This document shows positions 42,220-61,796 of a stretch of DNA of 64,000 bases, one piece after another. Origin of the DNA: Alphaproteobacteria bacterium (GTDB lineage: Bacteria; Pseudomonadota; Alphaproteobacteria; JASGCL01). The stretch covers positions 2,489 through 66,488 of the forward strand of contig JBPCVJ010000039.1 in assembly GCA_051010635.1 (NCBI GenBank), read 5' to 3'. Both the position numbers and the translations under genes were made by a program. The notes beneath the pieces are model-generated. The model did not search any database, was not told the DNA's origin, and saw only the letters and a program-made list of their open reading frames with translations. Position 1 is the first letter of the stretch; every line of letters begins with the position of its first letter.

Positions 42220-42234
42220 GTGATAGTAAAAAAT

Positions 42235-44118
42235 TTAATTAAATAAATTATCTAAGCGTTGCCAAAAAACTTCAACACCATAAATTTGATAAAGTTGAAG
42301 TAGCCAACTTTCAGTGCTGGCGGCTTGAAATTGTTGTTTGAAATCATCGCTATTTTTTTGTGACAGATTTGGCAAACTGGGTATATGCCGCATGATCAAT
42401 AATCTTGCCTTATCCGATACCACCACATTAAAAGCGGCAAACAACACCTCCACCACCTGTTGGTTATTTATATTTTGTAATATCGATTCATTGCCCAATA
42501 TCTGTTGTTGCGAAAAATAAAATCGTTTTGCCGATAATTTTTTGTCAGAACTATATTGGTCAAAATCAAATGTGCCTTTATTTATCTGTTCATCGATATT
42601 TTGTTTTTCAACCAACAATGTTTTTTTTGCCTCTGCCAATTGCCAATCTTGCAATAATTGATTTTTTATTTCGGCAAAAGGCGGTAAGAAGGTCGGCTGA
42701 TTATCCAACAAACCTATCGCTACAAGATTATTTTCATCATTGGTATTTTGATTATCATCGGTTTGATTCAAAACCAAAGGGGCAGTTTTAATATTGTCAG
42801 AAAACCCGCCCTCTAAAATATCATCAAGATAGGGTTGATTTGCAACATATCGCCCATTTTGGTAGCGACCTTGTTTATCAATAAAATCAGTGGCGGTAAT
42901 ACGCCCAACCAAACCTGTATCTTTTAATACCTCAGAAAATTTTTTCCCGCTTGCCAATTGGTCATTGACCAAACGGTAAAGATTGTTAAAAGCCTGATCG
43001 GTTTTTTTCGTCATAATATCGGCACGCAATGCATCTGCCACATCTGCCAATGGTTTTGGTGCGCCACCGATTTTTGTTAAAAAATGCAAAACGGCAAAAC
43101 CAAAAGGTGTCTCAATCACCGATGGTATGGTATCACCAACCTCAGCAGTGGTTAAGCCATAATTTGCCAAATCATGTCTCTGCAAAGTGATGGTATTATA
43201 TTTGGCATTTTGTGGTCGCTGGTTTAGCGATTGGGCGGGATTTTTTTGATAGATACGATAAAAATCATCTGCCGATGTTTTATCAGAAAACAACCATTGG
43301 GCAAATTGATAACCCGCTGGCACTATAAATTCTTGACGCCTTGCTTGGTAAGCGGCTTTGATGTCGGCATCACTTACCACCAATTTTTTAACCACCAATT
43401 TTTTTAAATCACCGCTGGATAAGGTAAGAATTTGAAAACGGCGATAATTGGGTTTTTGATATAAGGAAGCATTCGCCTGATAAAAATTTTCTAAATCATC
43501 ATTGGTGGGGTTTTTGATGGTAAGCCCAAGTTGTTTTGTATCCAATGAAATATAATCCACCGCAATGTTTGCATCACGCCCTGGCCAAACCGCCAACAAA
43601 TTGGGCGTATCAAATGTCAAGGCGGCAAAATAATTTTTTAGCCATGTTTGAGACAGATTTTTTTTTATTTGTTCAATGATGACGCCTTCGCTAATACCAT
43701 TTTGCTGAATAATCGCCAGATAGCGATCTTTTGAAAATTGCTGTGTGGCGGGGTCACGAAAAGCAGGATTTTTTTGAATCGCCTGTGCCACCACCTTATC
43801 AGAAATTTGCAATTTCATATCCACTGCCAATTTTGCCAATAATTCTTCAAGCAATAAATCTTGTAAAAACCTTTGCGGTAATTGTAAATTTTTTTGTTCA
43901 TCAATCGATAAATTTGCCAAATTATATTCTTGCAATTTATTTTGGTAATAGCGTTCAAATTGGCGAGGTTTAATATCACTGCCTTTCATTTTTACCAATG
44001 CTCGGCCCGATGGTGCCACACCGCTTGCACCAAAAGAAATAAAACCTATCGCCAATAATACCCCAAGCACAATTTGAAAAGGGCGATTGCGAACCAAAAA
44101 ACGAATGGGGGATAACAT
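42235..44118 (-). CDS. ppiD: Periplasmic chaperone / peptidyl-prolyl isomerase PpiD-like (membrane-anchored SurA-type)
   Basis: N-terminal single TM anchor. The blocks LQISDKVVAQAIQKNPAFRD and RYLAIIQQNGISEG are collinear with E. coli PpiD (GISDEQVKQAIFATPAF and RYNGILNQMGMTAD). Confidence 0.75.
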   Translation of the reverse strand: MLSPIRFLVRNRPFQIVLGVLLAIGFISFGASGVAPSGRALVKMKGSDIKPRQFERYYQNKLQEYNLANLSIDEQKNLQLPQRFLQDLLLEELLAKLAVDMKLQISDKVVAQAIQKNPAFRDPATQQFSKDRYLAIIQQNGISEGVIIEQIKKNLSQTWLKNYFAALTFDTPNLLAVWPGRDANIAVDYISLDTKQLGLTIKNPTNDDLENFYQANASLYQKPNYRRFQILTLSSGDLKKLVVKKLVVSDADIKAAYQARRQEFIVPAGYQFAQWLFSDKTSADDFYRIYQKNPAQSLNQRPQNAKYNTITLQRHDLANYGLTTAEVGDTIPSVIETPFGFAVLHFLTKIGGAPKPLADVADALRADIMTKKTDQAFNNLYRLVNDQLASGKKFSEVLKDTGLVGRITATDFIDKQGRYQNGRYVANQPYLDDILEGGFSDNIKTAPLVLNQTDDNQNTNDENNLVAIGLLDNQPTFLPPFAEIKNQLLQDWQLAEAKKTLLVEKQNIDEQINKGTFDFDQYSSDKKLSAKRFYFSQQQILGNESILQNINNQQVVEVLFAAFNVVVSDKARLLIMRHIPSLPNLSQKNSDDFKQQFQAASTESWLLQLYQIYGVEVFWQRLDNLFN

Positions 44119-44121
44119 AGG

Positions 44122-44751
44122 TTAATCTTTTTTTTGTAAAGGTTTTCGTTTCGGCATAACATCATCTATCAAGCCAAATTGTTTGGCTTCGCTTGCCGAC
44201 ATAAAATTATCTCGGTCAACCGATTTTTCTATGATTGCCAAATCATTGCCAGTATGTTTTACCAATAATTGATTCAAAATTTCACGAATACGCAAAATTT
44301 CTTGTGCCTGAATAGCCAAATCGGACGCCACCCCCTGTGCCCCACCCGATGGTTGATGCACCATAATCCGTGCATTGGGCAAAGCCATTCTTTTGCTTAC
44401 CCCACCCGCTGTTAATAGCAATGCCGCCATGGATGCCGCTTGACCAACACAGATGGTTGATACCGCAGGTTCAATAAATTGCATGGTATCATAAATTGAT
44501 AACCCCGCTGTCACCGAACCACCGGGCGAATTGATATAAAGAAAAATATCTTTTTTGGGATTTTCTGCCTCCAAAAATAATAATTGTGCCACCACCAATG
44601 ATGCCACATTATCATCAATACCGCCGGTTATAAAAATTACCCTTTCTTTTAATAGGCGTGAATAAATATCATAGGCGCGTTCGCCGCGCCCTGATTGTTC
44701 TATCACCATTGGCACCAAAGTATTATGAATGGTAGATATGGTATCGTTCAT
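44122..44751 (-). CDS. clpP: ATP-dependent Clp protease proteolytic subunit
   Basis: [11 protein letters not shown] (catalytic Ser), MVHQPSGG (His) and the conserved N-terminus [17 protein letters not shown]. Confidence 0.95.
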
Positions 44752-44789
44752 GTTTTTTTATAATAAATGAATCAAAAACTAATCGCAAA

Positions 44790-46166
44790 TCAATCGCTGG
44801 GGGCACGATGGATGCTTTCAGCTTTTTTAATAAAATCATCGGGCGATAGATCTTTATCAGCAATGGTAATTTTAGCCAAAAGATGTTCCACCACCTTTTG
44901 TTCAAAAATCGGTAATGACAATTCCACTTGCAGATTCTTATCTTTTTCAATGGTTTTTAAGAATTTTTCACGCTGGTCGGTTGGGTATTGCATGGCACGA
45001 TTCATAATCACCTGACGCATTTCATTTTCAGATACTTTGATATCGGCTTTTTCGCCCACATCATTCAATATCAAACCCAATTTTACCCGCCTTGCTGAAA
45101 TGGCACGATATTCTTTTTCCAAAGTTGTTAGGTCCTTACCCTTATCCTCCTCCTCCAGATGGTTATGTTCAAAAGCATGTTTAACATCCTTAAACACCGA
45201 TTGAAAATCATTTTCTACCATGCGTTCGGGCAATTCAAAATCCATCAAACGATGCAATTGGTCAAGCAATTGCCGTCTTAGTAAATCATTGCTCTGTTGG
45301 TCGGTTTGGCGGGTGATTTCTTTTTTTATCATTGCCACCAATTCCTGTTTATCCTTAAGCCCCATTTTTTTTGCCAAATCATCATCTTGTAAATTTGGCA
45401 AATATGCCTTGAGCGCCTTGATAGTGGTTTTAAAAACCGCTGGCTTTTCTGATAATGATTCATCATGATAATGTTTGGGAAAAACAACCTTAATCTCTAG
45501 GCTTTCATCCAATTTTTTACCCACCAATTGTGCCTCAAACCCTTCAATAAATTGTCCCGACCCCAATTCCAATTCAAAATCATTGGCTTTGCCACCCGCA
45601 AAAGGTTTGTCATCAATAAAACCTTCAAAATCCATCACCACAATATCGCCCTGTTTGGTTTCATTGCGGTCGGTGATGGGTTTTGTTTCACGATATCTTT
45701 TTGCCATAGCCACAAGGTTAGATTCAACTTTTTCTGCCATTTCCTTTTCGCTCAATGTGGCACGATAACGATGTAGCGAAATTTTATTAAGTGGCAATTC
45801 GGGTATCAAAGGCAATAGATTAACCGCAATTTCGGCAGTCAAATCCTTTTCTAATTTTAATGCCTCCTGATGATTGATGCTAATAATTTCTGGGCGGTCA
45901 GCAATTTTAACCGCAAATTCTTTTTGAATTTTTTCCAAACCTTGTTTCAAAAATTTTTGAATGGCATCCGCCATCAATTTATCGCTATAGTTTTTTTTCA
46001 AAATATCTATCGGCACCTTACCGACACGAAACCCCGCCATCTGTGCTTTGGGTTGCAAACTTGCCAATTCGGCATCAAGGTTTTTTGCCAAATCAGATTT
46101 TTTTACATTAATTTCATACTGCCGTGCCAATTTTTTTTTACTGGTCTGTTTGATATTTATCATCAT
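44790..46166 (-). CDS. tig: Trigger factor
   Basis: Three-domain layout with a central FKBP-like PPIase region (FEGFIDDKPFAGGKANDFELELGSGQFIEGFE). It is adjacent to clpP, as is typical. Confidence 0.9.
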   Translation of the reverse strand: MMINIKQTSKKKLARQYEINVKKSDLAKNLDAELASLQPKAQMAGFRVGKVPIDILKKNYSDKLMADAIQKFLKQGLEKIQKEFAVKIADRPEIISINHQEALKLEKDLTAEIAVNLLPLIPELPLNKISLHRYRATLSEKEMAEKVESNLVAMAKRYRETKPITDRNETKQGDIVVMDFEGFIDDKPFAGGKANDFELELGSGQFIEGFEAQLVGKKLDESLEIKVVFPKHYHDESLSEKPAVFKTTIKALKAYLPNLQDDDLAKKMGLKDKQELVAMIKKEITRQTDQQSNDLLRRQLLDQLHRLMDFELPERMVENDFQSVFKDVKHAFEHNHLEEEDKGKDLTTLEKEYRAISARRVKLGLILNDVGEKADIKVSENEMRQVIMNRAMQYPTDQREKFLKTIEKDKNLQVELSLPIFEQKVVEHLLAKITIADKDLSPDDFIKKAESIHRAPSD

Positions 46167-46239
46167 CTTAACTTTCTATGTATCACATTGTTTTCACATA
46201 TCGCAAATCAATAAAATTTTTTGGCTAGATTTTTATATC

Positions 46240-46323
46240 TGGTGCGGGCGGAGGGATTTGAACCCCCACGAGTTACCTCACCAGAACCTAAATCTGGCGC
46301 GTCTGCCATTTCGCCACGCCCGC
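46240..46323 (-). tRNA. tRNA-Leu (anticodon TAG)
   Basis: Reverse complement GCGGGCG-TG-GCGAAATGGCAGACGC-GCCAGATTTAGGTTCTGG-(long variable arm TGAGGTAACTCGT)-GGGGGTTCAAATCCCTC-CGCCCGC-A-CCA. A type-II tRNA with anticodon loop TTTAGGT. Confidence 0.9.
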
Positions 46324-46457
46324 CATTTTTTTTCTTTGCTATTGCCTTGTTATTAATAGATCCCCTTGTTTCACTTTTTATAAAAAAAAGCAAGATATTT
46401 TTCCAGCTTATAAAAATCCGCTTGCTAGTTTATCACAAACATCATAAAAACAAATCT

Positions 46458-49100
46458 ATGCCTAATACCATACCGCCCAATGATGATACTTCTGACCTTT
46501 TATCACCTTTAAAAGATAGTGCCAATCATTCCCCGCCGCTTGATAATCACGCCCAGAATGATAGCGAAAATAATTTACCAAAGGATGCTACCCTAACCCC
46601 ACTGATGGCACAATATCAATCATTAAAATCACAACACCCAGATAATCTGTTGTTTTTTCGCTTGGGCGATTTTTATGAATTATTTTTTGATGATGCTATT
46701 GAAACCGCCAGCCTGTTAAACCTTACCCTTACCAGACGCGGCAAACAAAATGATAAACCTATTCCGATGTGCGGGGTGCCATACCATGCGGTGGATAATT
46801 ATATTGCCAAATTAATTGCTATGGGAAAAAAAATTGCCCTTGCCGAACAAATAACCGACCAATCCAGCCATAAAAATTTGATGATGCGTAAAGTGGTGCG
46901 CATCATCACCCCAGGCACGGTGTTTGAGGATAGTTTGCTTGCTGATAAAACAAATAATTTTCTTATCGCCATCTACCCCCATAGTGCGATAGGTGGCAAA
47001 CATAATCCCCCAAGCGAAAAATCTATTGTGGTTGCCACCAGCGATGTATCGACTGGTTTTTTGGCGGTGGAAACGATACCCCTATCGCTGTTATCTGGTT
47101 TTATTAGTAAAATATCGCCTGCTGAGATTCTTATCCCCGATAATATGTTAAAGGATGAAAACATCGCCCTGACGATAAGGGATTTTTATGAAAAAATTAC
47201 CCCCGAGGCACATTCTATTTTTCATCATAAGCGTGGTAAAGAAATGCTTGAACAACAATTTCAAGTCAAAAGTTTGGCGGGGTTTGGCGATTTCAACCAT
47301 GATGAATTGGCGGTATTGGCGGGGTTATTATCTTATCTAAAACGCACCCAGATCGATACTATGCCGCGCCTATTGCCACCGAAAAAAAATAATCCATCGG
47401 ATGTGGTGGCGATTGATCGTGCTAGTTTTCAATCTTTGGAGATATTAACCAGCCAATCATCACCCCATAGCAAAAGCGGTAGTTTGCTTGATATGTTGGA
47501 TAAAACCCAAACCGCAGCGGGGGCAAGATTATTGCGTTCACGCTTGCAACAGCCATTGAAAAACCACCAACAGATTAATGCCCGCCTTGACCTCTTGGCA
47601 TTTTTTGTTGATAACCAGCCTTTAAGCGATTCTATCAAACAACATTTAACCGCCCTGCCTGATATATCCCGCGCCCTATCACGCCTATCGGTTAAAAAAG
47701 GCGGACCAAGAGATTTGGCGGCCATAGCCCAAGTGTTAGAAAAAATCCCTGCCATCAAGCAAACTTTGCGTCAATTTTTGCCAACCAACGATGAACATAA
47801 ATTATCGCAGGATGAAAAAAAAACCTATCAACCAATTATCCATTTGCTCACCGCTTGCCCCGATATTTTACCCATCAGGCAAACTTTACAAGATGCCCTG
47901 TTGATGGATAATTTGCCATTATTGGCACGCGATGGCGGGTTTATTCGTGCTGGGTTTCGCCATGACCTTGATAACATCAACACCCAGAAACAAGAAAAAC
48001 AACGGCAATTAAAATTGTTGGAGCAAACCTACCGCACCACCACCCAGATTGATAGTTTGAAAATAAAACACAATCATATCTGGGGATTTTATGTTGAAAT
48101 ACCCGCCAAACACGCTGGCAAGATGGCACAGCATCATATATTTCAACATCGCCAAACCCTATCATCATTGGTGCGATATAATAGTGCCGAATTGATAGAT
48201 TTGGGTAGCGATATTGAAAAAAGCATCAACCGAGCCTTGGCTTTGGAATTGGGAATTTTTGATGAATTGGTGGATGATATTTTAGACCAGCATATGCCAT
48301 TGATGAAAACCGCCGATTTGATAGCGGTGTTGGACCTTAATCAAACCATCGCCACCATCGCCCGTAACCAACATTTCACCCGCCCCGATATCATTGCCAA
48401 TGATGATGGCAACAACCGATTGGAATTGCATCGTGCCCGCCATCCGGTGGTCGAGCAGGCACTGGAAAAACAAGCCAACCATTTTACTGCCAATGATATC
48501 TTGCTTGATGATAAGCTATTCTTCATGTTGCTCACCGCCCCCAACATGGCGGGCAAAAGCACTTTCTTGCGTATGGTGGCAATTATTGTGGTGATGGCAC
48601 AAAGCGGATGTTATGTGCCAGCCGATAGGGCAGTGATAGCGGTGGTGGATAAAATTTTCTCACGGGTCGGGGCATCTGATGATTTGGCTAGGGGGCAATC
48701 AACCTTTATGGTTGAAATGTTAGAAACCGCCCATATCTTGCAAAATGCCACCCGCCATTCGCTTATCATTATGGATGAAATTGGTCGTGGCACCGCAACC
48801 TTTGATGGTCTATCGCTTGCGATCGCCATTACCGAGCATCTACATAACCACATCCATGCTAGATTATTATTTGCCACCCATTACCATGAATTGACCAAAT
48901 TGGCACAAAACCTAAAATCCATGACCTGCTTTACGATGAAGGTTGAAGAATGGGATAACAAATTGGTATTTTTCCATGAATTAATCTCTGGCAGTGCCAA
49001 TCATTCTTATGGCATTCAGGTGGCATCTATGGCGGGGGTGCCAAAATCGGTGATAGGTCGTGCCACACATATATTAAAGGAATTGGAAACCCATCAATGA
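46458..49100 (+). CDS. mutS: DNA mismatch repair protein MutS
   Basis: The mismatch-binding N-domain is LTPLMAQYQSLKSQHPDNLLFFRLGDFYELFFDDA. Walker A is TAPNMAGKST, and the C-terminal region carries the HTH. The tracked ORF start at 46221 lies inside tRNA-Leu, so I chose the ATG at 46458. Confidence 0.93.
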   Translation: MPNTIPPNDDTSDLLSPLKDSANHSPPLDNHAQNDSENNLPKDATLTPLMAQYQSLKSQHPDNLLFFRLGDFYELFFDDAIETASLLNLTLTRRGKQNDKPIPMCGVPYHAVDNYIAKLIAMGKKIALAEQITDQSSHKNLMMRKVVRIITPGTVFEDSLLADKTNNFLIAIYPHSAIGGKHNPPSEKSIVVATSDVSTGFLAVETIPLSLLSGFISKISPAEILIPDNMLKDENIALTIRDFYEKITPEAHSIFHHKRGKEMLEQQFQVKSLAGFGDFNHDELAVLAGLLSYLKRTQIDTMPRLLPPKKNNPSDVVAIDRASFQSLEILTSQSSPHSKSGSLLDMLDKTQTAAGARLLRSRLQQPLKNHQQINARLDLLAFFVDNQPLSDSIKQHLTALPDISRALSRLSVKKGGPRDLAAIAQVLEKIPAIKQTLRQFLPTNDEHKLSQDEKKTYQPIIHLLTACPDILPIRQTLQDALLMDNLPLLARDGGFIRAGFRHDLDNINTQKQEKQRQLKLLEQTYRTTTQIDSLKIKHNHIWGFYVEIPAKHAGKMAQHHIFQHRQTLSSLVRYNSAELIDLGSDIEKSINRALALELGIFDELVDDILDQHMPLMKTADLIAVLDLNQTIATIARNQHFTRPDIIANDDGNNRLELHRARHPVVEQALEKQANHFTANDILLDDKLFFMLLTAPNMAGKSTFLRMVAIIVVMAQSGCYVPADRAVIAVVDKIFSRVGASDDLARGQSTFMVEMLETAHILQNATRHSLIIMDEIGRGTATFDGLSLAIAITEHLHNHIHARLLFATHYHELTKLAQNLKSMTCFTMKVEEWDNKLVFFHELISGSANHSYGIQVASMAGVPKSVIGRATHILKELETHQ

Positions 49101-49780
49101 TAAAACCCCAAATCAACCCCGCCGATATTCAACATTGGGTATTCGATTTGGATAACACCCTTTACCATCATTCATTCAACCTATTTCAACAGGTGGAAAA
49201 ATTAATGACCAAATTCATTATGGAAAAATGGAATATGGATATCAATTCTGCCAAGCATTTACAAAAAAAATATTTCATCAAATATGGCACCACCTTAAGG
49301 GGGTTGATGGAAAATGATAACATTGACCCGATAGAATTCTTAAATAAAATACATGAAATTGATTACAGCCTATTACCCCGCAATGATAAATTGGCTAGCG
49401 ATTTACAAAATATCAGCGGGCAAAAATATATCTTCACCAATGCCAATCAAAACCACACCATCGCCATATTGAATCAGTTGGGTATCAAACAAACCATCTT
49501 TGCCAAAATGATATTTATTGAAGATATTGATTATATTCCCAAACCAAATATACCCGCTTATGAAAAATTCTTTAGCCACTGCCAGCAGATTCAAAAACAA
49601 AATTCAGTCTTGATAGATGATATTGCCGATAATTTAAAAACCGCCAAACATTTCGGTATGAAAACCGTGTGGTTAAAAAATACTTCCTACCCCCATAACC
49701 CCGCACCCCATCCATTGCCCGATTATATCGATATGGCAATTGATAACATTGATGATTTCGTTGCCGATATGATAAGGTAA
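49097..49780 (+). CDS. HAD-superfamily hydrolase (pyrimidine 5'-nucleotidase-like)
   Basis: HAD motif I VFDLDNTLY near the N-terminus. 227 aa. Its start overlaps the mutS stop by 4 nt. Confidence 0.6.
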   Translation: MIKPQINPADIQHWVFDLDNTLYHHSFNLFQQVEKLMTKFIMEKWNMDINSAKHLQKKYFIKYGTTLRGLMENDNIDPIEFLNKIHEIDYSLLPRNDKLASDLQNISGQKYIFTNANQNHTIAILNQLGIKQTIFAKMIFIEDIDYIPKPNIPAYEKFFSHCQQIQKQNSVLIDDIADNLKTAKHFGMKTVWLKNTSYPHNPAPHPLPDYIDMAIDNIDDFVADMIR

Positions 49781-49786
49781 AAAAAA

Positions 49787-50242
49787 ATGCCAAGCGATGA
49801 TATTGCCCTAATGAAACAATTGCTATCAATGGCAAAACAGGCTGGCAAAAAGGGCGAGGTGCCGATAGCCGCCATGCTGGTCGATAAACATGGCACCATA
49901 TTGGCAAGGGCACATAATCAGGTCGAGGCAAACCAAAACCCATTCCACCATGCCGAAATTGTGGTGATGCAAAGGGCGATGAAAAAAATTGGCAAAAAAT
50001 ATCTGCTTGATTGTCGGCTTATCACCACGCTTGAACCTTGCCATTTATGTGCGGCGGCGATCGGTTTGGCACGCATCAAAACATTGGTGTTCGGGGGTTA
50101 TGATGAAAAAATGGGCGGGGTGTTATCTGGGGCAAGGTTATTTGCCCAAAAAAATTGCCACCATATTCCAGACATCATTGATGGTATTTTGGCAAACGAA
50201 TCAGAAAAATTGATGCAAGAATTTTTTCAAAACCGCCGCTAA
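49787..50242 (+). CDS. tadA: tRNA-specific adenosine deaminase
   Basis: Zinc-binding HAEIVVMQRA and PCHLCAAAI (CDA-fold HAE...PCxxC). 151 aa. Confidence 0.85.
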   Translation: MPSDDIALMKQLLSMAKQAGKKGEVPIAAMLVDKHGTILARAHNQVEANQNPFHHAEIVVMQRAMKKIGKKYLLDCRLITTLEPCHLCAAAIGLARIKTLVFGGYDEKMGGVLSGARLFAQKNCHHIPDIIDGILANESEKLMQEFFQNRR

Positions 50243-50440
50243 AATTAGGGCAGGGTGATATAATATCGGGCGGCACAAAATAGCCATTGCCACAGGCTAG
50301 CGAGTCGCCACGCAACGCCACCACAGCTGGCATTATTTTTTTTCGTTGGCATCACCAAAAATACTTGAAAGTGAATAAAAAAATATTTTTTTTTATTGTT
50401 TGATGGTGGTATAATGGCTACTAATAATGAAAGGTAAAAT

Positions 50441-51142
50441 ATGATAGTTCAAATGAAACCTGAAGAAATTAATGTTTTTTGGCAATCTAACAACCAAACA
50501 ACATGGGAATATGTTTTGGGAAAATATATGTCCCGTGTTAAGTGGCGAAATAGAGAATTAGAGAATGAGTTAGAAAATGAATTCAATAAAGTGAAATGTT
50601 TAGATGATATAAAAAAATTCAAGGATGTAAAGAACTGGTATGAATTTATGTTAGAAAAATATTTTAGATGGAAATTTACTGACGGTAGGATATATGCAGG
50701 AAGAAAAACAGAATTTGAAATAAAATATGCATCTAATCAAGTATGTTTAGAAAATATGATTGAAGCTATTTTGCAAGAATCTAATCAGGCAGATGCCCAG
50801 ACAATGATAGCACTTACAAGAGAAATAGATGGGCTTGCTGTTCCAGCAGGTTCGGGTTTTTTGGCTTTATTATTACCAAAATTATATGGCACGGTAGATA
50901 GATATATTGTTGAGAATATTAAAGTCATAGAACCATTTAAAAATCACCCATTAATAAAATATATTAAACTTACAGCAATAGATAATACAGATTTTGAATC
51001 CTTAACAAAAATATTTAGAAATAAGGCAGATGAATTAAATAAAAAATTTTCTACTAATGATTGGACGCCTAGAAAAATTGATAAAGTGCTGTGGGCTATT
51101 CGGCAACCCCGCAAACCCCGCATTTCAAAATACCACCCTTGA
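50441..51142 (+). CDS. Hypothetical protein, first gene of an AT-rich cassette
   Basis: 233 aa. It has its own AGGTAAA ribosome-binding site before the ATG. No recognisable motif. By eye it is distinctly more AT-rich than the flanking housekeeping genes. Its last roughly 25 codons overlap the 29-bp direct repeat, copy 1. Confidence 0.45.
   Translation: MIVQMKPEEINVFWQSNNQTTWEYVLGKYMSRVKWRNRELENELENEFNKVKCLDDIKKFKDVKNWYEFMLEKYFRWKFTDGRIYAGRKTEFEIKYASNQVCLENMIEAILQESNQADAQTMIALTREIDGLAVPAGSGFLALLLPKLYGTVDRYIVENIKVIEPFKNHPLIKYIKLTAIDNTDFESLTKIFRNKADELNKKFSTNDWTPRKIDKVLWAIRQPRKPRISKYHP
51061..51089. repeat. 29-bp direct repeat, copy 1 (ttggacgcctagaaaaattgataaagtgc)
   Basis: It matches 51614-51642 with a single mismatch (G versus A at position 4). 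Confidence 0.85.
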
Positions 51143-51220
51143 TATTGGCTTATCAACACCCCATATTGTGAGATATCAACCAATTAAATCAATCAATTAT
51201 TTTTTGAAAGGATTAAAAAA

Positions 51221-51607
51221 ATGGAAAAAGAGTTAAAAATCGCTATATGGAACTTTATATATTATCTAGAAGATAATATGTATAGTGACCAAAAAAAGAG
51301 TTATTATAAATTGTATATGATGCGTTTTTGTGATGAACCTATGGATGAATATTGTTCTTTAGATCATATGCGAGATAAAATCAAAAAATTTATTCTTGAA
51401 GCAGAACAGGGTCAAATTTTAAAATTATTGCAATTTTTATTTAAAAATATTGCTTTAATATATGCTGATTCTAGAAGCAAACTTGCTTCAGTAGACGAAT
51501 TCACAAAATATACAGAACAACAATTAAATGATATTTTAGAAGGACATAAATTTCCTAGTAGATTTGATTCAAAAGAAAACATATTTTTTGAATTAAAATT
51601 ACCCTGA
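51221..51607 (+). CDS. Hypothetical protein, second gene of the cassette, bracketed by the 29-bp repeats
   Basis: 128 aa. AAAAAATGG start region with GGATTAAAAAAATGG upstream. No recognisable motif. Confidence 0.4.
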   Translation: MEKELKIAIWNFIYYLEDNMYSDQKKSYYKLYMMRFCDEPMDEYCSLDHMRDKIKKFILEAEQGQILKLLQFLFKNIALIYADSRSKLASVDEFTKYTEQQLNDILEGHKFPSRFDSKENIFFELKLP

Positions 51608-51613
51608 TAATTG

Positions 51614-51642
51614 TTGAACGCCTAGAAAAATTGATAAAGTGC
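51614..51642. repeat. 29-bp direct repeat, copy 2
   Basis: See copy 1. In the shifted frame the downstream sequence would give ...TPRKIDKVRFAITALFYHFYACYWWRIGVGIF*, an alternative hydrophobic C-terminus for the 233-aa protein. Confidence 0.85.
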
Positions 51643-51844
51643 GGTTTGCCATAACTGCCCTTTTTTATCATTTTTATGCTTGCTATTGGTGGCGAATTGG
51701 TGTAGGTATTTTTTGATGATTCGGCATAGCCGATATATCATTGATATATCGTATTTATATTGCTATGATGATCGTTTGGTGGGCAATGTCGCTTGCCATT
51801 AACTAAACTATAAATCAATTAACTTATATCATAAAGGAGACTAT

Positions 51845-52762
51845 ATGATGAAAAAAACATTCAAACAAACTCTATTGGCGTCAGCTTTGATAGGTTTGGC
51901 AGGTATTGCCAATGCTAAAGATGGGTTCTATGTAACCCCTGATTTCAATTTGCTATTTGTCGATAGTGGCTACACCAAAGATAATGGCACAGGCGTTGGT
52001 TTTGGTGGCGGTTTGCTAACTGGCTATCAAATCAATAATTTTCAACTCGAATTGGCGGCTGCCTACCAATATTATGGTGGCACAGGCTCGGTAACCCAAA
52101 ATCTTACACCAACGGGGCAACAGGCTGCCCTTGGCGGTGCTCAAGTTACAGGGGATGCTGAGGTTGGTGATGGTTCTGGATCAATGACCAGCTCGGTTGA
52201 TAGCAATGAAGCTTTCATTCCCTTAACATTGGGGGTGAATTATATCATTCCGCTTAATGACAGCGGGTCATTTTCCATTTCGCCCGGTATTGCAACTGGC
52301 GTGTGGTTTCACACCATAGATAGAAGCTTCTCTCTTAGCCCTGATGCTAATGTGATTAATGCTACTATTGGTGGTGCAAATGCAACCCAAGAGGGTCAAG
52401 TAGCGTTTGGTGCAGCTGTGGCAAATGCTATTACTGCTAGTGGTGGAACTCTAAACCAAGCTCAAGCCTCACAAGCGGTGGCAGCGGGTATTTTAGACGG
52501 AAATGCTCCCGATGATTCTGCTAGCGAAACCAAATGGGTTATCGTGCCAGCCTTGAACATGGATTATGCGATATCGCAAAATTTCACCATGCGTCTTGCG
52601 GGTAAATTTTATCTTGTGCCATCTGGCTACAGCGATAATTATGATGCCACTAACCAAGCCAATGCCGAGGCAGGGTCAGCTTTGTTTGCCCCAGCCTATA
52701 ATGGCGTAGAAGATTTCTTCTGGTATGGTGCGGTTAATCTTTCAGCACAATATACTTTCTAA
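51845..52762 (+). CDS. Outer membrane beta-barrel protein (Omp25/Omp31-like surface antigen family)
   Basis: Clear signal peptide (MMKKTFKQTLLASALIGLAGIANA-KDG). Gly/Ala-rich loops. C-terminal ...LSAQYTF with terminal Phe. Paralog of 54295-55029. Confidence 0.7.
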   Translation: MMKKTFKQTLLASALIGLAGIANAKDGFYVTPDFNLLFVDSGYTKDNGTGVGFGGGLLTGYQINNFQLELAAAYQYYGGTGSVTQNLTPTGQQAALGGAQVTGDAEVGDGSGSMTSSVDSNEAFIPLTLGVNYIIPLNDSGSFSISPGIATGVWFHTIDRSFSLSPDANVINATIGGANATQEGQVAFGAAVANAITASGGTLNQAQASQAVAAGILDGNAPDDSASETKWVIVPALNMDYAISQNFTMRLAGKFYLVPSGYSDNYDATNQANAEAGSALFAPAYNGVEDFFWYGAVNLSAQYTF

Positions 52763-52786
52763 TTATAGATTGATGAAATCAAAAAA

Positions 52787-52823
52787 ACCCCGTCTTGGAA
52801 TCTATCCAAGGCGGGGTTTTTTA
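52787..52823 (+). terminator. Rho-independent terminator after the OMP gene
   Basis: Hairpin ACCCCGTCTTGG...CCAAGGCGGGGT (one mismatch) followed by TTTTTTATTTTTT. Confidence 0.75.
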
Positions 52824-52896
52824 TTTTTTCAACTTGCAAATGGTGAATGGATTGGATAAAAATTTTTAATGGGCGAATAATGATGAGCGAACAATA

Positions 52897-54090
52897 ATGA
52901 GCAAACATAAAAATGATATTGTTATTTTGGCGGCAAAACGCAGTGCCATAGGGTCATTTTTGGGCAGTTTATCTAGCATCAATGCCCCAGATATCACCGC
53001 ACCATTGATAACATCGGTTTGTGCAGGGTTAGATAAATTGACCGATATTGGCGAGGTGATTTTGGGGCAGATATTAAATGCAGGTGGCGGGCAAGGCCCG
53101 GCACGCCAAGCCGCTATGCGGGCTGGAATCCCCCAAACCGTGCCAGCGATGGGGATTAATTTTCTGTGCGGTTCGGGGCTGAAAGCGGTGGCACTAGCCA
53201 ATGATTATATTCTATCTGGCAGTTGCCAATTGCTGGTGGCTGGCGGTATGGAATCGATGAGCCGCGCACCACACGCTGTATTATTAAGGGCAGGGCTACC
53301 CGATGCGATAAAAATGGGCGATGGCAAATTGGTTGATACCATGTTGTCAGATGCTTTATATTGTGCGTTTCATAATTATCACATGGGGCAGACCGCTGAA
53401 AACATTGCCAAAAAATTCAACATTGATAGGCACGCCCAAGATGAATTTGCCATAGCCAGCCAAGAAAAGGCGGCACGGGCTATCAAACAAGGCAATTTTA
53501 AGGATGAAATTTTACCCCTAACCATAAAGCAAAAAAAGGGCGACATGATATTTGACAATGATGAATACCCTAGGGGTGGCGATATAGATAGCCTAGCCAA
53601 ATTACAACCAGTTTTTATGAAGGGCGGTTCGGTAACAGCGGGCAATGCATCGGGCTTGAATGATGGCGCCGCGGCGTTATTGGTGGCAAGCCGTGACTAT
53701 GCCGATAAACACCATCTAAAGCCGATGTGCAAAATTATTTCCCATGCTTCGGTGGGGGTAGACCCCGCCATCATGGGGGTGGGGCCCATCGATGCAACCA
53801 AATTGGCGTTGGCAAAGGCGGGTTTGACGGTGGGCGATTTGGATTTGATAGAATCAAATGAAGCCTTCGCCGCACAAAGTTTGGCAGTGATAAAAGAATT
53901 GGGGTTTGATGCAAAACGGGTGAATATCAATGGCGGTGCGATAGCCCTGGGCCACCCCGTGGGGGCATCGGGGGCAAGAATATTGGTGACATTGATCCAT
54001 GCCTTACAAAAAAATGGCGGGCGTTATGGATTGGCAACTTTATGCGTGGGCGGTGGTATGGGGGTATCGATGGTGGTGGAGCGAGAATAA
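52897..54090 (+). CDS. Acetyl-CoA C-acetyltransferase (thiolase II)
   Basis: Active-site Cys region NFLCGSGLKAV, and the C-terminal NGGAIALGHPVGASGARI and CVGGGMG thiolase signatures. Confidence 0.92.
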   Translation: MSKHKNDIVILAAKRSAIGSFLGSLSSINAPDITAPLITSVCAGLDKLTDIGEVILGQILNAGGGQGPARQAAMRAGIPQTVPAMGINFLCGSGLKAVALANDYILSGSCQLLVAGGMESMSRAPHAVLLRAGLPDAIKMGDGKLVDTMLSDALYCAFHNYHMGQTAENIAKKFNIDRHAQDEFAIASQEKAARAIKQGNFKDEILPLTIKQKKGDMIFDNDEYPRGGDIDSLAKLQPVFMKGGSVTAGNASGLNDGAAALLVASRDYADKHHLKPMCKIISHASVGVDPAIMGVGPIDATKLALAKAGLTVGDLDLIESNEAFAAQSLAVIKELGFDAKRVNINGGAIALGHPVGASGARILVTLIHALQKNGGRYGLATLCVGGGMGVSMVVERE

Positions 54091-54207
54091 AATCTGGTGG
54101 AGCGGGAATAAAAGTTGGTGGAGCGAGAATAAATTTTAAGGTGGGCGGTTAATGGGGGTATCAATGGTGGTGGAGCGAGAATAAAAGTTGGTGGAGCGGG
54201 AATAAAA
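54064..54207. repeat. Minisatellite: about 5 tandem copies of a 21-bp unit (tggtggagcgRgaataaaaDt) plus a duplicated copy of the last roughly 35 bp of the thiolase gene
   Basis: Units are visible at 54071-54090, 54091-54111, 54112-54132, 54166-54186 and 54187-54207. The segment 54150-54186 (taatgggggtatcaatggtggtggagcgagaataaa) repeats the 3' end of the thiolase gene. Confidence 0.85.
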
Positions 54208-54238
54208 AACCGCCCAGCTAGCATAACTAGACTGGGCG
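54203..54238 (-). terminator. Hairpin terminator for the convergent minus-strand OMP gene. It may act in both directions.
   Basis: The stem CCGCCCAGCTAG pairs with CTAG(A)CTGGGCG. On the minus strand the hairpin is followed by TTTTTTATTCCC. Confidence 0.6.
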
Positions 54239-54294
54239 ATTAGGAGGAGGAAAGGCTTTTTTACTTCAGCCCAAAGAAGACCTATCAAAATCTA

Positions 54295-55029
54295 TCAAAA
54301 CCTATATGATGAACCGATGGTAACACCGCTATACCATAAAAGCCCGTCTTCTGGTCTGGGGCTTTCGGTGGTATAATATCCTTCGGTGTTGGCGATATCA
54401 ATAGCCGAATCGCTATAAACTTCATTATAACCACCAAACACCATATAAAATTTTCCTGCCAAAATAAGCGTCCATTGGTCATCAAGCGCATAGATCAATT
54501 CTATTTTTGGCACCAATAACCCCCTGATGATGGATGTGGTATCATCAAATGATGCGGTGCCATCAAATGGCGTAGTATTATCGGTGGTGGTAAAGGTTTT
54601 ATTCACACTATAAATCATCATGCCGCCACCGACGCTAAAGGTGGTATCGATGCTTTGTAAAAAGGGAAAGGTGTAATTGACACTACTATAGATGGGGAAA
54701 AAATTTTCGCTAATATCGCCTTCAAGATTTGTGGCGTCGCCAATTTTTTGCGTTTTGCCCGAACCGAAAGCATAATGCCAGCCAGCGGTGGCTTCCCATT
54801 GCCAAGCATCAAATTGATAGCCAAAGCTAAAGCTTAAACCAGCACCAAGCCCAGTTTCGCCCGAACCACGGGTTAAATCAGACGGGATAAGAATAAATTC
54901 CCCCTCAGGTTTGATAAACCAGCCGTCTTCGGCTTTGGCAGTACCCACCGCCATCATCGAGGTTAATAATAAACTGGCTAAACCAATTTGGATGTTTTTT
55001 TTCATTTTATTGCGGCGATGTTTTTTCAT
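54295..55029 (-). CDS. Outer membrane beta-barrel protein (Omp25/Omp31-like)
   Basis: Signal peptide (..MKKNIQIGLASLLLTSMMAVGTAKA-EDG). C-terminal ...IGSSYRF. The true start is probably the second Met, at about 55005. Confidence 0.7.
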   Translation of the reverse strand: MKKHRRNKMKKNIQIGLASLLLTSMMAVGTAKAEDGWFIKPEGEFILIPSDLTRGSGETGLGAGLSFSFGYQFDAWQWEATAGWHYAFGSGKTQKIGDATNLEGDISENFFPIYSSVNYTFPFLQSIDTTFSVGGGMMIYSVNKTFTTTDNTTPFDGTASFDDTTSIIRGLLVPKIELIYALDDQWTLILAGKFYMVFGGYNEVYSDSAIDIANTEGYYTTESPRPEDGLLWYSGVTIGSSYRF

Positions 55030-55312
55030 AATAGTATTTTTTGATTGATGGAATAGTTTCGCCCGCTATTATATCATCATTTTTTAAAAAATCAATAGGG
55101 GTGGGCATCATTATTGTCTTTTGTTGTTATTTTATTGAATTTTTTGCTATTGCAACAATGAAGACAGGTTATTTTATCCGTTTTCGCTTATAATAATAAA
55201 AATTGACCCAAATATTTTTTTTATAAATATGTTGACAAATTGATGAAAATATCTTATAAAAGGTGTAATTCTTTATAATATAAAGAAGGTGGGGTATTTC
55301 TTTAGAGTGCCG

Positions 55313-55350
55313 TAAAAAAGCCAGCATCTTTAAAAATGCTGGCTTTTTTA
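55313..55350 (-). terminator. Rho-independent terminator immediately after the DUF3800-like gene
   Basis: Perfect inverted repeat AAAAAAGCCAGCAT-cttTAAAA-ATGCTGGCTTTTTTA, with U-runs on both strands. Confidence 0.8.
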
Positions 55351-55351
55351 T

Positions 55352-56137
55352 TTATCGTATCAATTTGATACCATAACCTTTTTGATGACCATTCGTATCC
55401 TTTAGAATTTTATTATTGATAGTTTCCAAAACTTTTAGACCAAAATTATTACTTAATTTATCAATTATTCCATATTGATAAAGCACATAAAATTTAAGAA
55501 TAGTTGTTATCATATCACATATTTCTAATCCACAGATTCTATGTTTTTTATTCCTTTCTTTTATTTTATTTGTTGTGATTACTTTTTGAATTTCGTTACT
55601 ATCGCTATAATCGGTGCCCTTATTATAAAAATTTTCAAATGTTTTTCTTAATTGTTGGTTTTCATGTTTTCCCCTCTGTTCTATCATAACATCACCTTGT
55701 TTATTATTTTCTATTAAAAAACGAACATATCTTTCTAATAAAACATTTAAAGTATAGTGGTAAGGATGGTAAGGGTGGAGATAACGATTTTTATGATTTG
55801 TTTTATCTAATACGACAGATATGATATTCATATTATTTTTAGATAAAAAGTCCAAATATATTTTATCAAATTTATTTTTTAGATTAATATCATTTTTTAA
55901 TTTAGAAAAAATGCCTTTTCCATTAATCACATCAATAAGATGAAAATTAGGTAAATGACCATTTGTATCAATAAATAAATTTCTTATTTCTTCCCATTCA
56001 GTGCTAATTTTTTCATAGATATCATTATGAATAATAACGCCTGATAGGCAAAGATAGCGAAATGGTATATCATCTAATGTTGAGTAACGATGATCCCCGC
56101 TTTCATCAATATATATTCGATATTTATCTTTCATCAT
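55352..56137 (-). CDS. DUF3800-like protein in a singleton AT-rich island
   Basis: 261 aa. It begins MMKDKYRIYIDESGDH, and from memory the N-terminal YIDESG motif is the hallmark of the Pfam DUF3800 family. It is visibly more AT-rich than its neighbours. It has its own terminator. Confidence 0.55.
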   Translation of the reverse strand: MMKDKYRIYIDESGDHRYSTLDDIPFRYLCLSGVIIHNDIYEKISTEWEEIRNLFIDTNGHLPNFHLIDVINGKGIFSKLKNDINLKNKFDKIYLDFLSKNNMNIISVVLDKTNHKNRYLHPYHPYHYTLNVLLERYVRFLIENNKQGDVMIEQRGKHENQQLRKTFENFYNKGTDYSDSNEIQKVITTNKIKERNKKHRICGLEICDMITTILKFYVLYQYGIIDKLSNNFGLKVLETINNKILKDTNGHQKGYGIKLIR

Positions 56138-56277
56138 GTCAAATAGGAAAACCTATGTTTAATTTTATTAAATATAGGTTTGGTAGTTATAACAATTTTT
56201 AACGAATGGTAAATAATTTTTTATAGTTTGTAAAGTGTTTATTATTTAATCAAATTTATAATTTCAAAAATAACACC

Positions 56278-57348
56278 TCACCATTGCCGTGATAGGGATG
56301 CGATGGTAAATTCCTCTAGCAGTTGTTTGGCGGGGCTATCGGCAAAATAGGTCAGCGATGTTAGGGCGTGGGATACAAATTTTTCTATATGGGCGTGGCT
56401 GGCAGCGGCAATGTTATAATTGGTTAATTGTGCCTTTAGCCAAGCAAAATCATCGCTGGTTTTTTTAACCGCTGGTTGTGTGGTGTGATAAAATAATTCA
56501 TCTAATTTTTTTATGATGGCTTTATCATGCTTGGCATGGGTTTTTAGCAACAATATCGGCAGGGTCATTTTGCCCTCATAAAAATCACCACCGATGGGTT
56601 TTTGGGTTTTGGTTTCATCGCCAAAATAATCCAGCCCATCATCCACCAGTTGAAATACCATACCCAAATCGCCACCCAATTTATCAAGCGCACGGGTGGT
56701 TTTGTGGGCTGTATCATATTGTTGTAATAAACCTGCCACCGCAAAACTGGCAGAAAATAAAGCACCGGTTTTGGCAAAAATAATTTTTTCATAATTGGGC
56801 ATGGTCAATGGTTGGGGTTGATGATGTTGTTGATAGCTTAATTGCCATATTTCCCCGATGGATAGGGTGGCGGCGGTGGTTGCCAATTTGCTTAAAACCG
56901 CTTGGTTATTTGTTTTGACCATCAATTGAAAGGCACGGGCGAATAAAAAATCCCCCACCAATACCGATAGATGGTTGCCCCAAATATGATTGGCAGTATT
57001 TTTCCCCCGCCGATGGGTGGCATGGTCTATCACATCATCATGAAATAAGGTTGCGGTGTGAATAAATTCCACCGCCGCCGCCAAATAAACGATCGGTTTG
57101 GTTGTATCGCCCTTTAAGGGTGGGGTGGAGGTTGGCAATAATTGTTCGCTTAATAAACATAATAGGGGGCGAATATGTTTTCCCCCCGCTGATAAAAGAT
57201 GGTTGGCAATTTCGGGCAACAGGGGTAGATGCGAAATATCAGCCATCTGTAATTCGCTTTTGATGATATTTTGCACCGCCAAAAAATCATCCGCCACCGC
57301 CGCCGCCATCGCCTTCATAACATTGTTTAAATTTTTTTGTGTGCGCAT
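56278..57348 (-). CDS. ispB: Polyprenyl (octaprenyl) diphosphate synthase
   Basis: First Asp-rich motif LFHDDVIDHATHRRG and second motif FQLVDDGLDY, the trans-IPPS FARM and SARM. 356 aa. Confidence 0.85.
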   Translation of the reverse strand: MRTQKNLNNVMKAMAAAVADDFLAVQNIIKSELQMADISHLPLLPEIANHLLSAGGKHIRPLLCLLSEQLLPTSTPPLKGDTTKPIVYLAAAVEFIHTATLFHDDVIDHATHRRGKNTANHIWGNHLSVLVGDFLFARAFQLMVKTNNQAVLSKLATTAATLSIGEIWQLSYQQHHQPQPLTMPNYEKIIFAKTGALFSASFAVAGLLQQYDTAHKTTRALDKLGGDLGMVFQLVDDGLDYFGDETKTQKPIGGDFYEGKMTLPILLLKTHAKHDKAIIKKLDELFYHTTQPAVKKTSDDFAWLKAQLTNYNIAAASHAHIEKFVSHALTSLTYFADSPAKQLLEEFTIASLSRQW

Positions 57349-57447
57349 AGATATAGTTTTTTTTGATGCAAAAAAAACTTTATCATATTATAGTGTGAAA
57401 AACAATTTTATGACAAAGATGGATGATAGGGGTTTGATGATATAGCA

Positions 57448-58218
57448 ATGACTGGTGATATAACTTGCGATGGTATTTTGAATCAAAAATTGGTTTTGTA
57501 TCAATATAAAATGGGTTATCGGGTGGCGGTTGATTCGATTCTGGTGGGGGCGATGGTGGATCTATCGGCAAAAAATATTCTTGACCTTGGGGCAGGGGTG
57601 GGGGCGGTTTCATTGGTGGCACAATATTGGAACAGGTTGGCACAATACCATGCTGTGGAAAATAATATTGATTATTTTCACTTGCTTAAAAAAAATTTAT
57701 TAAAGGCAAACCTATCTTTACGGCGCGGCAAAAAAATGACCACCCATCATTGTGATATAAAAACCTTTGCCGATAATCCCCACCACAGGGAAAAATTTTG
57801 TCAGGTATTGTGTAATCCGCCCTTTGATAATATTGATGATACAACACCCCCGCCCGATGGGTTAAAACGATCGGCATTTGTTTTTCAATCGGGCGATAAT
57901 ATGCTTGATTGGTGGCAGGCGGGTTTGGCGGTATTGCGATTGGGCGGGCGGCTGAGTTTTATCACCCGTTTTGATATGAAAAAAACCATCATTGATTTTT
58001 TTTCACAATATAAAGGTTTATTAACCATGCAATCGGTGGTGGCGAATGATCGCACGATAAGATGGCTGGTGGATTTTAAAAAACTACCGAATAACATGGG
58101 CGATGTGATAACCCCCCCCGATTTTATTTTACAAACCACAAAAAAAAATGGCACCCATTATACCCCAAAAGCCGATGCTATTTTGGCGGGGGAAGCCTAT
58201 CATCATTTTCCTTTTTGA
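57448..58218 (+). CDS. N6-adenine SAM-dependent methyltransferase, tRNA (m6A37) TrmN6/YfiC-like
   Basis: NPPF catalytic motif (VLCNPPFDNI), the SAM motif ILDLGAGVGAVSL, and an N-terminal GYRVAVDSILVGA resembling YfiC GxxxxxDxxLL. A C8 homopolymer lies at 58112-58119. Confidence 0.6.
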   Translation: MTGDITCDGILNQKLVLYQYKMGYRVAVDSILVGAMVDLSAKNILDLGAGVGAVSLVAQYWNRLAQYHAVENNIDYFHLLKKNLLKANLSLRRGKKMTTHHCDIKTFADNPHHREKFCQVLCNPPFDNIDDTTPPPDGLKRSAFVFQSGDNMLDWWQAGLAVLRLGGRLSFITRFDMKKTIIDFFSQYKGLLTMQSVVANDRTIRWLVDFKKLPNNMGDVITPPDFILQTTKKNGTHYTPKADAILAGEAYHHFPF

Positions 58219-58232
58219 TGGGGGGCAACATC

Positions 58233-58445
58233 ATGAAAATAATATTATTTTTTATTATTTTAACACCATTGATGGCTGGTTGCCATATCAAGCAAAAACC
58301 GCTGGATGAATGTATCAAACAGGGCGGCACAAGGGTGATCCTTTCTACTGGTAGCGGTTTTGCTGTGGGGGGTGTTTCGCTTGGCGTGACCAGCAATATA
58401 GTTGATTGCAAAAAACCATCTGCAAAGAAATATAAAGAACAATGA
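58233..58445 (+). CDS. Small putative lipoprotein
   Basis: MKIILFFIILTPLMAGC is a lipobox with Cys, followed by a roughly 50-aa mature peptide. I chose the Met at 58233 rather than the tracked 58215. Confidence 0.35.
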   Translation: MKIILFFIILTPLMAGCHIKQKPLDECIKQGGTRVILSTGSGFAVGGVSLGVTSNIVDCKKPSAKKYKEQ

Positions 58446-58494
58446 TTCCATTTTGACAAATTTTTTGATATGATATAGTAAGAATAAAAACAAA

Positions 58495-58773: not shown

Positions 58774-58883
58774 GGGCTTGACAAGCCTATCGATAGGTTT
58801 TATATTGATGGCTGATAGGAAAGATGGTATAACCATTTACACCTATTTTTAAATCGTTAACCATTTTTTTTAAGGAGAAAAAT

Positions 58884-59624: not shown

Positions 59625-59721
59625 TCCAAAAATTTTGGGCGAGTCATTATGAAAATAGTGACTCGCCTATTTTTTTAAGCCGAATTTTTTTTGAAAAAAA
59701 ACCCAAGATCATTTTTACACC

Positions 59722-61784: not shown

Positions 61785-61796
61785 TAAAAAAAACCA

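Follow-up and report, generated by a model that had tools for sequence, protein, structure and literature searches.

What is the origin of a direct repeat that overlaps the 3' end of one small gene and recurs, nearly intact, just downstream of the next? We examined this question at an AT-rich locus in an alphaproteobacterial metagenome-assembled genome (MAG; GCA_051010635.1, contig JBPCVJ010000039.1, positions 2,489 to 66,488); all coordinates below refer to this 64,000-nt stretch, which we call the window. The locus is an islet between a tadA-type gene and a gene resembling those for outer-membrane proteins (OMPs), and contains two plus-strand open reading frames (ORFs), gene 1 (50441..51142, 233 aa) and gene 2 (51221..51607, 128 aa). 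A preliminary description had taken the repeat for the boundary of a cassette whose insertion had replaced the original C-terminus of gene 1. Instead, we favour, with somewhat better than even confidence, a decaying, horizontally acquired defence islet of ~1.3 kb, in which an intact glycosylase-like gene is accompanied by a truncated gene for a sensor domain and by the stub of another glycosylase gene.

The islet stands out by its G+C content (GC): its leader and ORFs have values of 0.22–0.28, whereas the gene on either side has 0.45 and the tadA-proximal spacer 0.50. The ORF list and these values bear out the two AT-rich ORFs of the preliminary description, and its guess at a defence island was a good one, as the segment is compositionally foreign and of defence-island type.

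The C-terminus of gene 1 was compared with those of its relatives. A first search returned three distant relatives with 33–35% identity, all ending WTPRKIDKVLWASRQ or WTPRKVDMVLWTCGR. The family comprises 632 proteins by profile search and 80 loci by metagenome scan, and has no Pfam model, solved structure or annotation. Nearly all members (about 70 relatives) end in ...WTPRK[IV]D[KM][VI]LWxxR, with the stop 4–6 codons after LW, and in a 40-sequence alignment W208, R211 and D214 (gene 1 numbering) are invariant whilst L217 and W218 are at least 90% conserved. Gene 1 carries the canonical motif, W208-TPRKIDKV-LW218, and ends ...WTPRKIDKVLWAIRQ plus an 11-residue extension modelled at low confidence. 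Because the family norm matches the present end of gene 1, the idea of a replaced original end is the wrong way round; judged by these alignments, the present C-terminus is the native one. A downstream repeat of the 3' end was seen in none of the 80 related loci, which makes the structure specific to the present locus. The 11-residue extension, PRKPRISKYHP, is unusual, and is encoded within ~90 nt of host-like GC (0.46) inside the AT-rich islet (51090–51180), a stretch that contains CAACCCCGCAAACCCCGC.

The repeat has a core, the 25-mer ACGCCTAGAAAAATTGATAAAGTGC, that occurs exactly twice in the 64 kb, at 51065..51089 (copy 1) and 51618..51642 (copy 2), with no occurrence expected in shuffled sequence. 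Extended to the left, it forms the 29-mer of the preliminary description (51061–51089 and 51614–51642), which is indeed 28/29 identical between copies at a spacing of 553 bp and overlaps the 3' end of gene 1; the single mismatch is a transition, TGG to TGA, at the W208 codon. Copy 1 encodes T209–V216 of the most conserved motif of gene 1. The two copies do not bound a two-gene cassette, as had been proposed, and enclose only the last 18 codons of gene 1, the spacer and gene 2. They also form the core of a longer, ungapped homology between 51019–51099 and 51572–51652, in which 59/81 positions (73%) are identical by blastn. Upstream of the core, in the register fixed by the core, 28/46 nt are identical compared with 15.1 ± 3.2 (maximum 23) in other registers, and 41/75 compared with 24.4 ± 4.0 (maximum 35). 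The excess identity cannot be put down to coding periodicity common to both segments, since their codon phases differ by one in this register. Searches of the window, of IMG/VR and of 596 Gb of GTDB species representatives gave no further copy of the 25-mer; this speaks against a generic element of the REP (repetitive extragenic palindromic) type, which the preliminary description had named as an outcome that would undo its reading. A supposed third copy at the left edge of the islet was rejected, its by-eye similarity being no higher than in shuffles, as was an integron attC or Xer dif character of the 29-mer, in which neither an inverse core nor dyad symmetry was seen by eye.

Copy 2 appears to lie within the remains of a second gene of the same family. 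A search of the six-frame translation of the window with the family hidden Markov model (HMM) detected gene 1 and one further match, at 51522..51653 on the plus strand (i-Evalue 4.4e-4; HMM positions 258–301 of 319, roughly the final 44 positions of the profile); its frame is +1 with respect to that of gene 2. The same stretch (51540–51650; E 0.004–0.03) was found by tblastn when gene 1 and two relatives (P0002 and P0003) served as queries. In frame, the match reads DINFLVDLIQKKTYFLN*NYPDNC*TPRKIDKVRFAI (asterisks denote stop codons), compared with DFESLTKIFRNKADELNKKFSTNDWTPRKIDKVLWAI in gene 1. It keeps the conserved K195, L199 and N200, and contains two in-frame stops, one where the K201 codon has become TAA and one where the W208 codon has changed from TGG to TGA. 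After copy 2 the frame does continue into a different, hydrophobic C-terminus, as the preliminary description had noted, reading TPRKIDKVRFAITALFYHFYACYWWRIGVGIF before a stop. However, this alternative tail has RF in place of LW (L217R and W218F, both at near-invariant positions) and is preceded by the TAA and TGA stops, and about 70 relatives end as gene 1 does now, so that tail swapping is not borne out. In-frame stops and the loss of L217 and W218, in a frame homologous to the family, identify the match by its sequence as a pseudogene stub, probably what is left of the 3' end of another family gene, with copy 2 as its undecayed core.

The stub does not appear to be a copy of gene 1. Outside the core, 8/29 residues are identical to gene 1 and up to 9/29 to distant members, and in the helix region 8/17 match the relative at locus L001 against 5/17 for gene 1. 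The stub is therefore no closer to gene 1 than to distant members, which, for so short a segment, points to a separate paralogue or xenologue as its source. The core encodes the most constrained peptide of the family, TPRKIDKV, and hence high identity in the core beside ~60% in the flanks is what two diverged members would be expected to show. AT-rich family members other than gene 1 are identical to it at 19–22 of the 25 nt of the core motif.

Gene 2 is an orphan ORF that resembles a sensor domain. It matches the Pfam family AbiJ_NTD4 (PF18863) at E 1e-5 and the N-terminal half of the PADLOC profile PDC-S32 at E 1.9e-6 (profile positions 28–139 of 285), with one PADLOC alignment stopping at residue 101. 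The N-terminal domains of AbiJ proteins are regarded as sensor modules, joined to a HEPN RNase or to other effectors (PMC3710099; PMC13064643). Gene 2 has no HEPN/Abi_C effector and no Rx4-6H motif, and no HEPN-like ORF was found in 51608–51845. In a single-sequence model (mean predicted local distance difference test, pLDDT, 66.5) the helices end at residue 106 and coil follows from 107, and the stub begins at nt 51522–51543, about codons 101–108 of gene 2. The last ~25 codons of gene 2, from about codon 101, are thus stub DNA read in another frame. Given that these codons run out of frame across the stub, gene 2 is probably truncated. No homologue was found in 5.8e9 clustered proteins, in IMG/VR, in plasmids or beside relatives of gene 1, and a search of 1.84e9 representatives returned only gene 2 itself. 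With gene 2 an orphan and the neighbours of gene 1 relatives hypervariable, the locus is not a conserved, ordinary operon, the other outcome that the preliminary description had considered fatal to its reading. The N-terminal AbiJ_NTD4 domain of the AbiJ abortive-infection proteins (AbiJ-NTD1–5 plus HEPN; Anantharaman et al. 2013, PMC3710099) can be aligned with gene 2, as can PDC-S32 over its N-terminal half. It differs from AbiJ in lacking the HEPN/Abi_C effector, in its below-cut-off score, in being an orphan and in its out-of-frame relic tail.

Gene 1 is predicted to be a DNA-glycosylase-like protein of helix-hairpin-helix (HhH)-GPD type, an assignment drawn from structure and motif. An AlphaFold (AF2) model built from 40 family members was confident and all-helical, with pLDDT 88.6 and a predicted TM-score (pTM) of 0.86. 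The top Foldseek matches in the PDB, which are also the best whole-length structural matches, were Ogg2-type 8-oxoguanine (8-oxoG) glycosylases, namely Tm1821 (3N0U), SsOgg (3FHG) and MjOgg (3KNT), at probability 0.90–0.97 over ~220 aligned columns and 14–17% identity, and most of the top 50 PDB matches were HhH-GPD glycosylases (OGG1, 3-methyladenine glycosylases, MagIII and MutY). In the model, an HhH lies at about residues 119–144 (helix 119–126, hairpin IDGLA, helix 134–144) and is followed by a Gly/Pro loop with P146 and G150, after which T151-V-D153 caps helix 154–161. In the 40-sequence alignment, G131, S138, G139, P146 and T151 do not vary and D153 is conserved at 90% or more. Gene 1 possesses the HhH-GPD hallmark, in that an HhH and a Gly/Pro loop precede a conserved Asp that N-caps the following helix. 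These features are shared with the Ogg2 enzymes, in which the sequence at the Asp-capped helix, TVDRY in gene 1, is presumably IIDRH. In contrast to the Ogg2 enzymes, gene 1 lacks the catalytic Lys, has no Pfam HhH-GPD match and is a non-core, foreign gene in a variable context. The position of the HhH lysine of Ogg2 and EndoIII is occupied by Ala, Gly or Pro across the family. Absence of this lysine predicts a monofunctional enzyme, and gene 1, if active, is probably of that kind. The preliminary description had found no recognisable motifs in either protein; this stands for gene 1 as far as Pfam families go, and fails for the AbiJ_NTD4 and PDC-S32 matches of gene 2 and for the large family and glycosylase-like model of gene 1.

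The genomic neighbourhoods of the gene 1 family are variable and often rich in defence genes. The 153 neighbouring ORFs fall into 144 clusters, and the family is a solo gene without a conserved partner. Recurrent neighbours include GmrSD, SspE, HEC-06, Orf5, a type IV methyl-directed restriction endonuclease (mREase_IV), MADS, Hma/DUF499-DUF1156 and Dcm-Vsr-HNH, together with a UvrD-PDDEXK nuclease-helicase, TrwC relaxase, ArdC and Mu transposase. The neighbours include many housekeeping genes as well, and the defence association is given here as occurrences rather than as enrichment. Gene 1 had no match in PLSDB plasmids, no significant viral structural match and no PHROG match, and no family member was found in IMG/VR. 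From the modelled fold and these neighbourhoods, gene 1 is probably an antiviral glycosylase.

Members of the family vary in architecture. One protein (P0064) is fused to an AAA/STAND-like ATPase, an N-terminal DUF7225 domain is present in 3/40 members, the common 326-aa form has an N-terminal extension of ~100 aa, and some members have C-terminal extensions of 100–150 aa; proteins P0064, P0018, P0087 and P0096/P0104 and loci L017, L028, L043, L064 and L080 have such fusions or extensions. Several family genes in metagenome contigs (L047, L061 and L007–L009) are split into two ORFs, which may be frameshifts or pseudogenes and which suggests that genes of this family decay frequently. A long array of 7-nt tandem repeats (CCCTTAG/ACCTTAG) lies directly upstream of the gene 1 relative P0003 (L001:5768–5947). 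One member gave a faint match to Q_salvage (queuosine salvage; E 0.021).

The closest parallel is with the Dag proteins. Dag1–Dag17 are defence-associated glycosylases of the HhH superfamily that act on 7-deazaguanine-modified phage DNA (Getz et al.; bioRxiv 10.1101/2025.10.29.685425). They are AT-rich, mobile, undetectable by sequence and structurally near Ogg2/AGOG; residues K118, D184 and W188 of Dag1 are essential, the latter two forming a DxxxW motif, and 3FHG and 3KNT served as reference structures in that study (bioRxiv 10.1101/2025.10.29.685425). We compared gene 1 with these proteins by predicted structure, context and residue spacing. Like them, the gene 1 family consists of small stand-alone proteins with no sequence link to known glycosylases and a predicted HhH-superfamily fold nearest to Ogg2/AGOG, with 3FHG and 3KNT also among the top matches of gene 1, and it is found in an AT-rich, horizontally moving context beside defence genes (GC 0.28 for gene 1 compared with 0.45 for the host). 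Both have DxxxW in the C-terminal helix, D184/W188 of Dag1 corresponding to D214/W218 of gene 1 by an equivalence based on spacing only, and this motif of gene 1 lies inside the repeated motif region. Unlike the Dag proteins, the gene 1 family is without the HhH lysine, taken to correspond to K118 of Dag1, and gene 1 is not in an integron.

These results are consistent with the following history. An AT-rich defence islet would have been acquired horizontally between the host tadA and OMP genes and then partly decayed. Gene 1 would encode a DNA glycosylase of HhH-GPD type, monofunctional and acting like Dag by removing a non-canonical, phage-modified base, with the conserved C-terminal helix (D214xxxW218) as part of its active site. 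Gene 2 would represent the 5' ~100–106 codons of an AbiJ_NTD4-type sensor-domain gene that has lost its effector part, and its ORF would now continue into the 3' stub of another, diverged glycosylase gene, read there in the wrong frame. A single deletion from the middle of the AbiJ-like gene into that glycosylase gene may have occurred, a reconstruction which would explain both truncations at once. The 29-bp repeat would then simply be the place where the intact gene and the stub remain identical, TPRKIDKV being written in shared AT-rich codons.

Several observations weigh against this interpretation. A GTDB scan for the tadA–OMP interval with TadA found no host relative, and consequently neither the empty site nor the order of events was observed. 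A core identical at 25/25 nt next to flanks at ~60% exceeds what codon constraint predicts, since only 0.5% of family pairs are identical at 24 or more of the 25 nt; gene conversion over a short patch may be an added cause. A sub-profile of residues 176–207 alone fails to detect the stub, the upstream extension of which rests mainly on DNA identity and the full-profile match. The AbiJ_NTD4 score of gene 2 is below the Pfam cut-off (26.5 bits compared with 34), a precomputed Pfam annotation of the domain carries a weak flag, and the structural model of gene 2 is of low confidence, rendering the fold search uninformative. For gene 1, the Foldseek match in the PDB is weak by E-value (0.1–0.35) and TM-score (0.39–0.47), and no sequence link of the family to any glycosylase was detected: Pfam has no family for gene 1 and matches 0/40 members to a glycosylase family, a PDB sequence search returned no match for gene 1, and hhalign of the family against Escherichia coli EndoIII gave a probability of 0.06.

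We considered whether copy 2 might instead have arisen when the 3' end of gene 1 was recently duplicated nearby, by template switching, slippage or as filler DNA at an insertion junction. Such an origin would account for the perfect identity of the core, for the single transition in the 29-mer and for the position of the copy, only 553 bp away on the same strand. However, flanks at ~60% identity beside a core at 100% are not the pattern of uniform decay, and outside the core the relic is at least as close to the family consensus as to gene 1. We regard a local duplication as unlikely.

A more ambitious proposal builds on the defence-islet reading. The 25-nt TPRKIDKV tract could serve as a homology 'docking' site for allele replacement in defence islets, by which diverged glycosylase alleles and their downstream DNA are exchanged and of which the stub would be a footprint; at the same time, the family would constitute a new, lysine-less class of antiviral glycosylases that targets phage base modification outside the Dag and Brig systems. 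This combined proposal is speculative, and we consider it decidedly unlikely in this full form.

The cassette model of the preliminary description holds that site-specific or short-homology integration placed a 553-bp unit carrying gene 2 in the 3' end of gene 1, with a replacement end arriving and the original being displaced downstream; ancestral gene 1 would then have ended ...KIDKVRFAITALF.... Prophages e14 and 21 integrate in this way in the 3' end of icd, bringing a phage-borne replacement end. The present locus resembles icd in that it has two directly oriented copies of a gene end, the downstream one partial and displaced. The repeats, moreover, are direct, in frame and exact over 25 bp, which is near the minimum for RecA-dependent homology and typical of att cores, and the DNA that follows copy 1 (51090–51180) has its host-like GC, unlike the rest of the islet. 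However, the displaced copy at icd is the genuine original end and an integrase is present, whereas here the downstream copy is degenerate, homology extends upstream of the core too, and no recombinase was recognised. The supposedly incoming end, LWAIRQ, is the canonical end of the family, and the supposedly displaced original, RFAI..., is without L217 and W218. Homology upstream of copy 2, with in-frame stops, is unexpected for an att arm. Inspection of the ORF lists by eye (ORFs of at least 150 aa in 38000–46500, at least 40 aa in 47000–55000 and at least 100 aa in 54000–64000) revealed no recognisable integrase or transposase in 38000–64000, where the genes were otherwise core-like. Together with the failure of the 25-mer to recur at any other site searched, and with the occurrence of this structure in 0/80 related loci, these findings make site-specific cassette insertion highly unlikely.

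We also asked whether copy 2 could be an artefact of MAG assembly, in which two sequences were falsely joined where they share a short k-mer. In an independent Logan assembly (k=31; run SRR33949960), one contig of 1264 bp, L012, is identical to window positions 50355–51618. It confirms gene 1, copy 1 with both flanks, gene 2 and the decayed upstream part of the stub. The contig starts where the AT-rich DNA starts, ~10 nt after the terminator-like T run of tadA, and ends at the first base of copy 2, so the junction between gene 2 and copy 2 is supported by the MAG alone, as a false join would have it. However, the break is most simply ascribed to low coverage, as host contigs of the same Logan runs are similarly short, at 2344 and 1414 bp, and end within genes, with 7/9 host genes not intact, and a false join would still need the core in both molecules. 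An assembly artefact is thus most improbable. A reading of the ends of L012 as graph branch points of a mobile unit was downgraded, given the equally short host contigs with arbitrary breaks; the coincidence of the contig with the islet is a weak hint of population heterogeneity at both islet edges, or reflects simply low coverage.

Phase or tail variation by a functional switch, in which RecA-mediated deletion between the repeats would remove gene 2 and equip the glycosylase with a hydrophobic tail of membrane type, is hardly credible. The deletion product would be in frame and its 24-residue alternative tail is hydrophobic, but L217 and W218 would be missing from its conserved terminal helix, no branch occurs at copy 1 in the independent k=31 assembly, the arrangement is found in no other family member, and the tail is encoded by terminator-like intergenic DNA. 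The last point refers to 51641..51668 (plus strand), where a consensus scan reports, at the relic's end, a weak hairpin and adjoining T run that resemble an intrinsic terminator (folding free energy −11.9 kcal/mol, z −1.76); termination is their putative function. Equally scant credence attaches to a polymorphic toxin-immunity pair, as which the preliminary description had suggested the two genes might be read: the small adjacent ORFs, AT-rich composition and repeat are all that recommend it, with no positive result, whereas neither protein has a toxin, pre-toxin, secretion or immunity domain (Pfam, NCBIfam and PADLOC), gene 1 belongs to a stand-alone, enzyme-like family without a conserved partner, and the relic is the end of an enzyme-like gene whose repeated part is the most conserved segment of the family and not a variable toxin tip.

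On the left, the islet adjoins the host core gene for a tadA-type nucleoside deaminase (49787..50242, plus strand; GC 0.45), which matches Pfam MafB19-deam and dCMP_cyt_deam_1 and is named nucleoside deaminase by NCBI. The AT-rich islet leader (50355..50440, plus strand; GC 0.22) contains a predicted candidate extended −10 element, TGgTATAAT (50407–50415), and the ribosome-binding site (RBS) GAAAGG; a scan for promoter sites found no excess of promoter-like sites, and the candidate −10 was simply read from the sequence. On the right lies a host gene for a predicted outer-membrane beta-barrel protein (51845..52762, plus strand; GC 0.45), which NCBI names a hypothetical protein; the assignment was based on a signal-peptide-like N-terminus and a C-terminal ...YTF, and the gene has no Pfam match. 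An RBS-proximal segment upstream of gene 2 (51174–51212) is weakly similar to 51797–51838 upstream of the OMP gene, sharing TAAATCAAT...AAAGGA, at a marginal p of ~0.05 by shuffling. Extended homology between the DNA after copy 1 and that after copy 2 was likewise marginal (p ~0.05) and was not used.

Further features of the window lie outside the islet. Rfam identified three tRNAs only, all far from the locus. A second small AT-rich islet lies 4 kb downstream (55050–56200; GC 0.245 in 55001–56000), between another OMP gene and a polyprenyl synthetase gene, and carries a minus-strand gene (55352–56137, 261 aa) that NCBI names a DUF3800 domain-containing protein and that has no PHROG match. Tandem 21-nt repeats, TGGTGGAGCGAGAATAAAAGC, occur at 54074–54207 in 2.9 + 1.9 copies, starting in the last codons of a thiolase gene (end 54090) and extending into the spacer before the next OMP gene. 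Window positions 1–5000 are also AT-rich (GC 0.28–0.36 compared with a window average of ~0.40).

The repeat and the supposed tail swap are a commonplace scar left by gene turnover in a small defence islet that has partly decayed. The repeat that first drew attention to the locus is of little importance in itself, and the glycosylase-like family is the only part worth following. To our knowledge, glycosylases have been recognised as antiviral effectors only since 2024–2025. The locus shows how a small defence islet decays, leaving one intact gene, one truncated sensor-domain gene and one stub. With at least 632 proteins, a conserved Asp and DxxxW motif and no catalytic lysine, the gene 1 family represents a reasonable candidate for defence against phages with modified bases.

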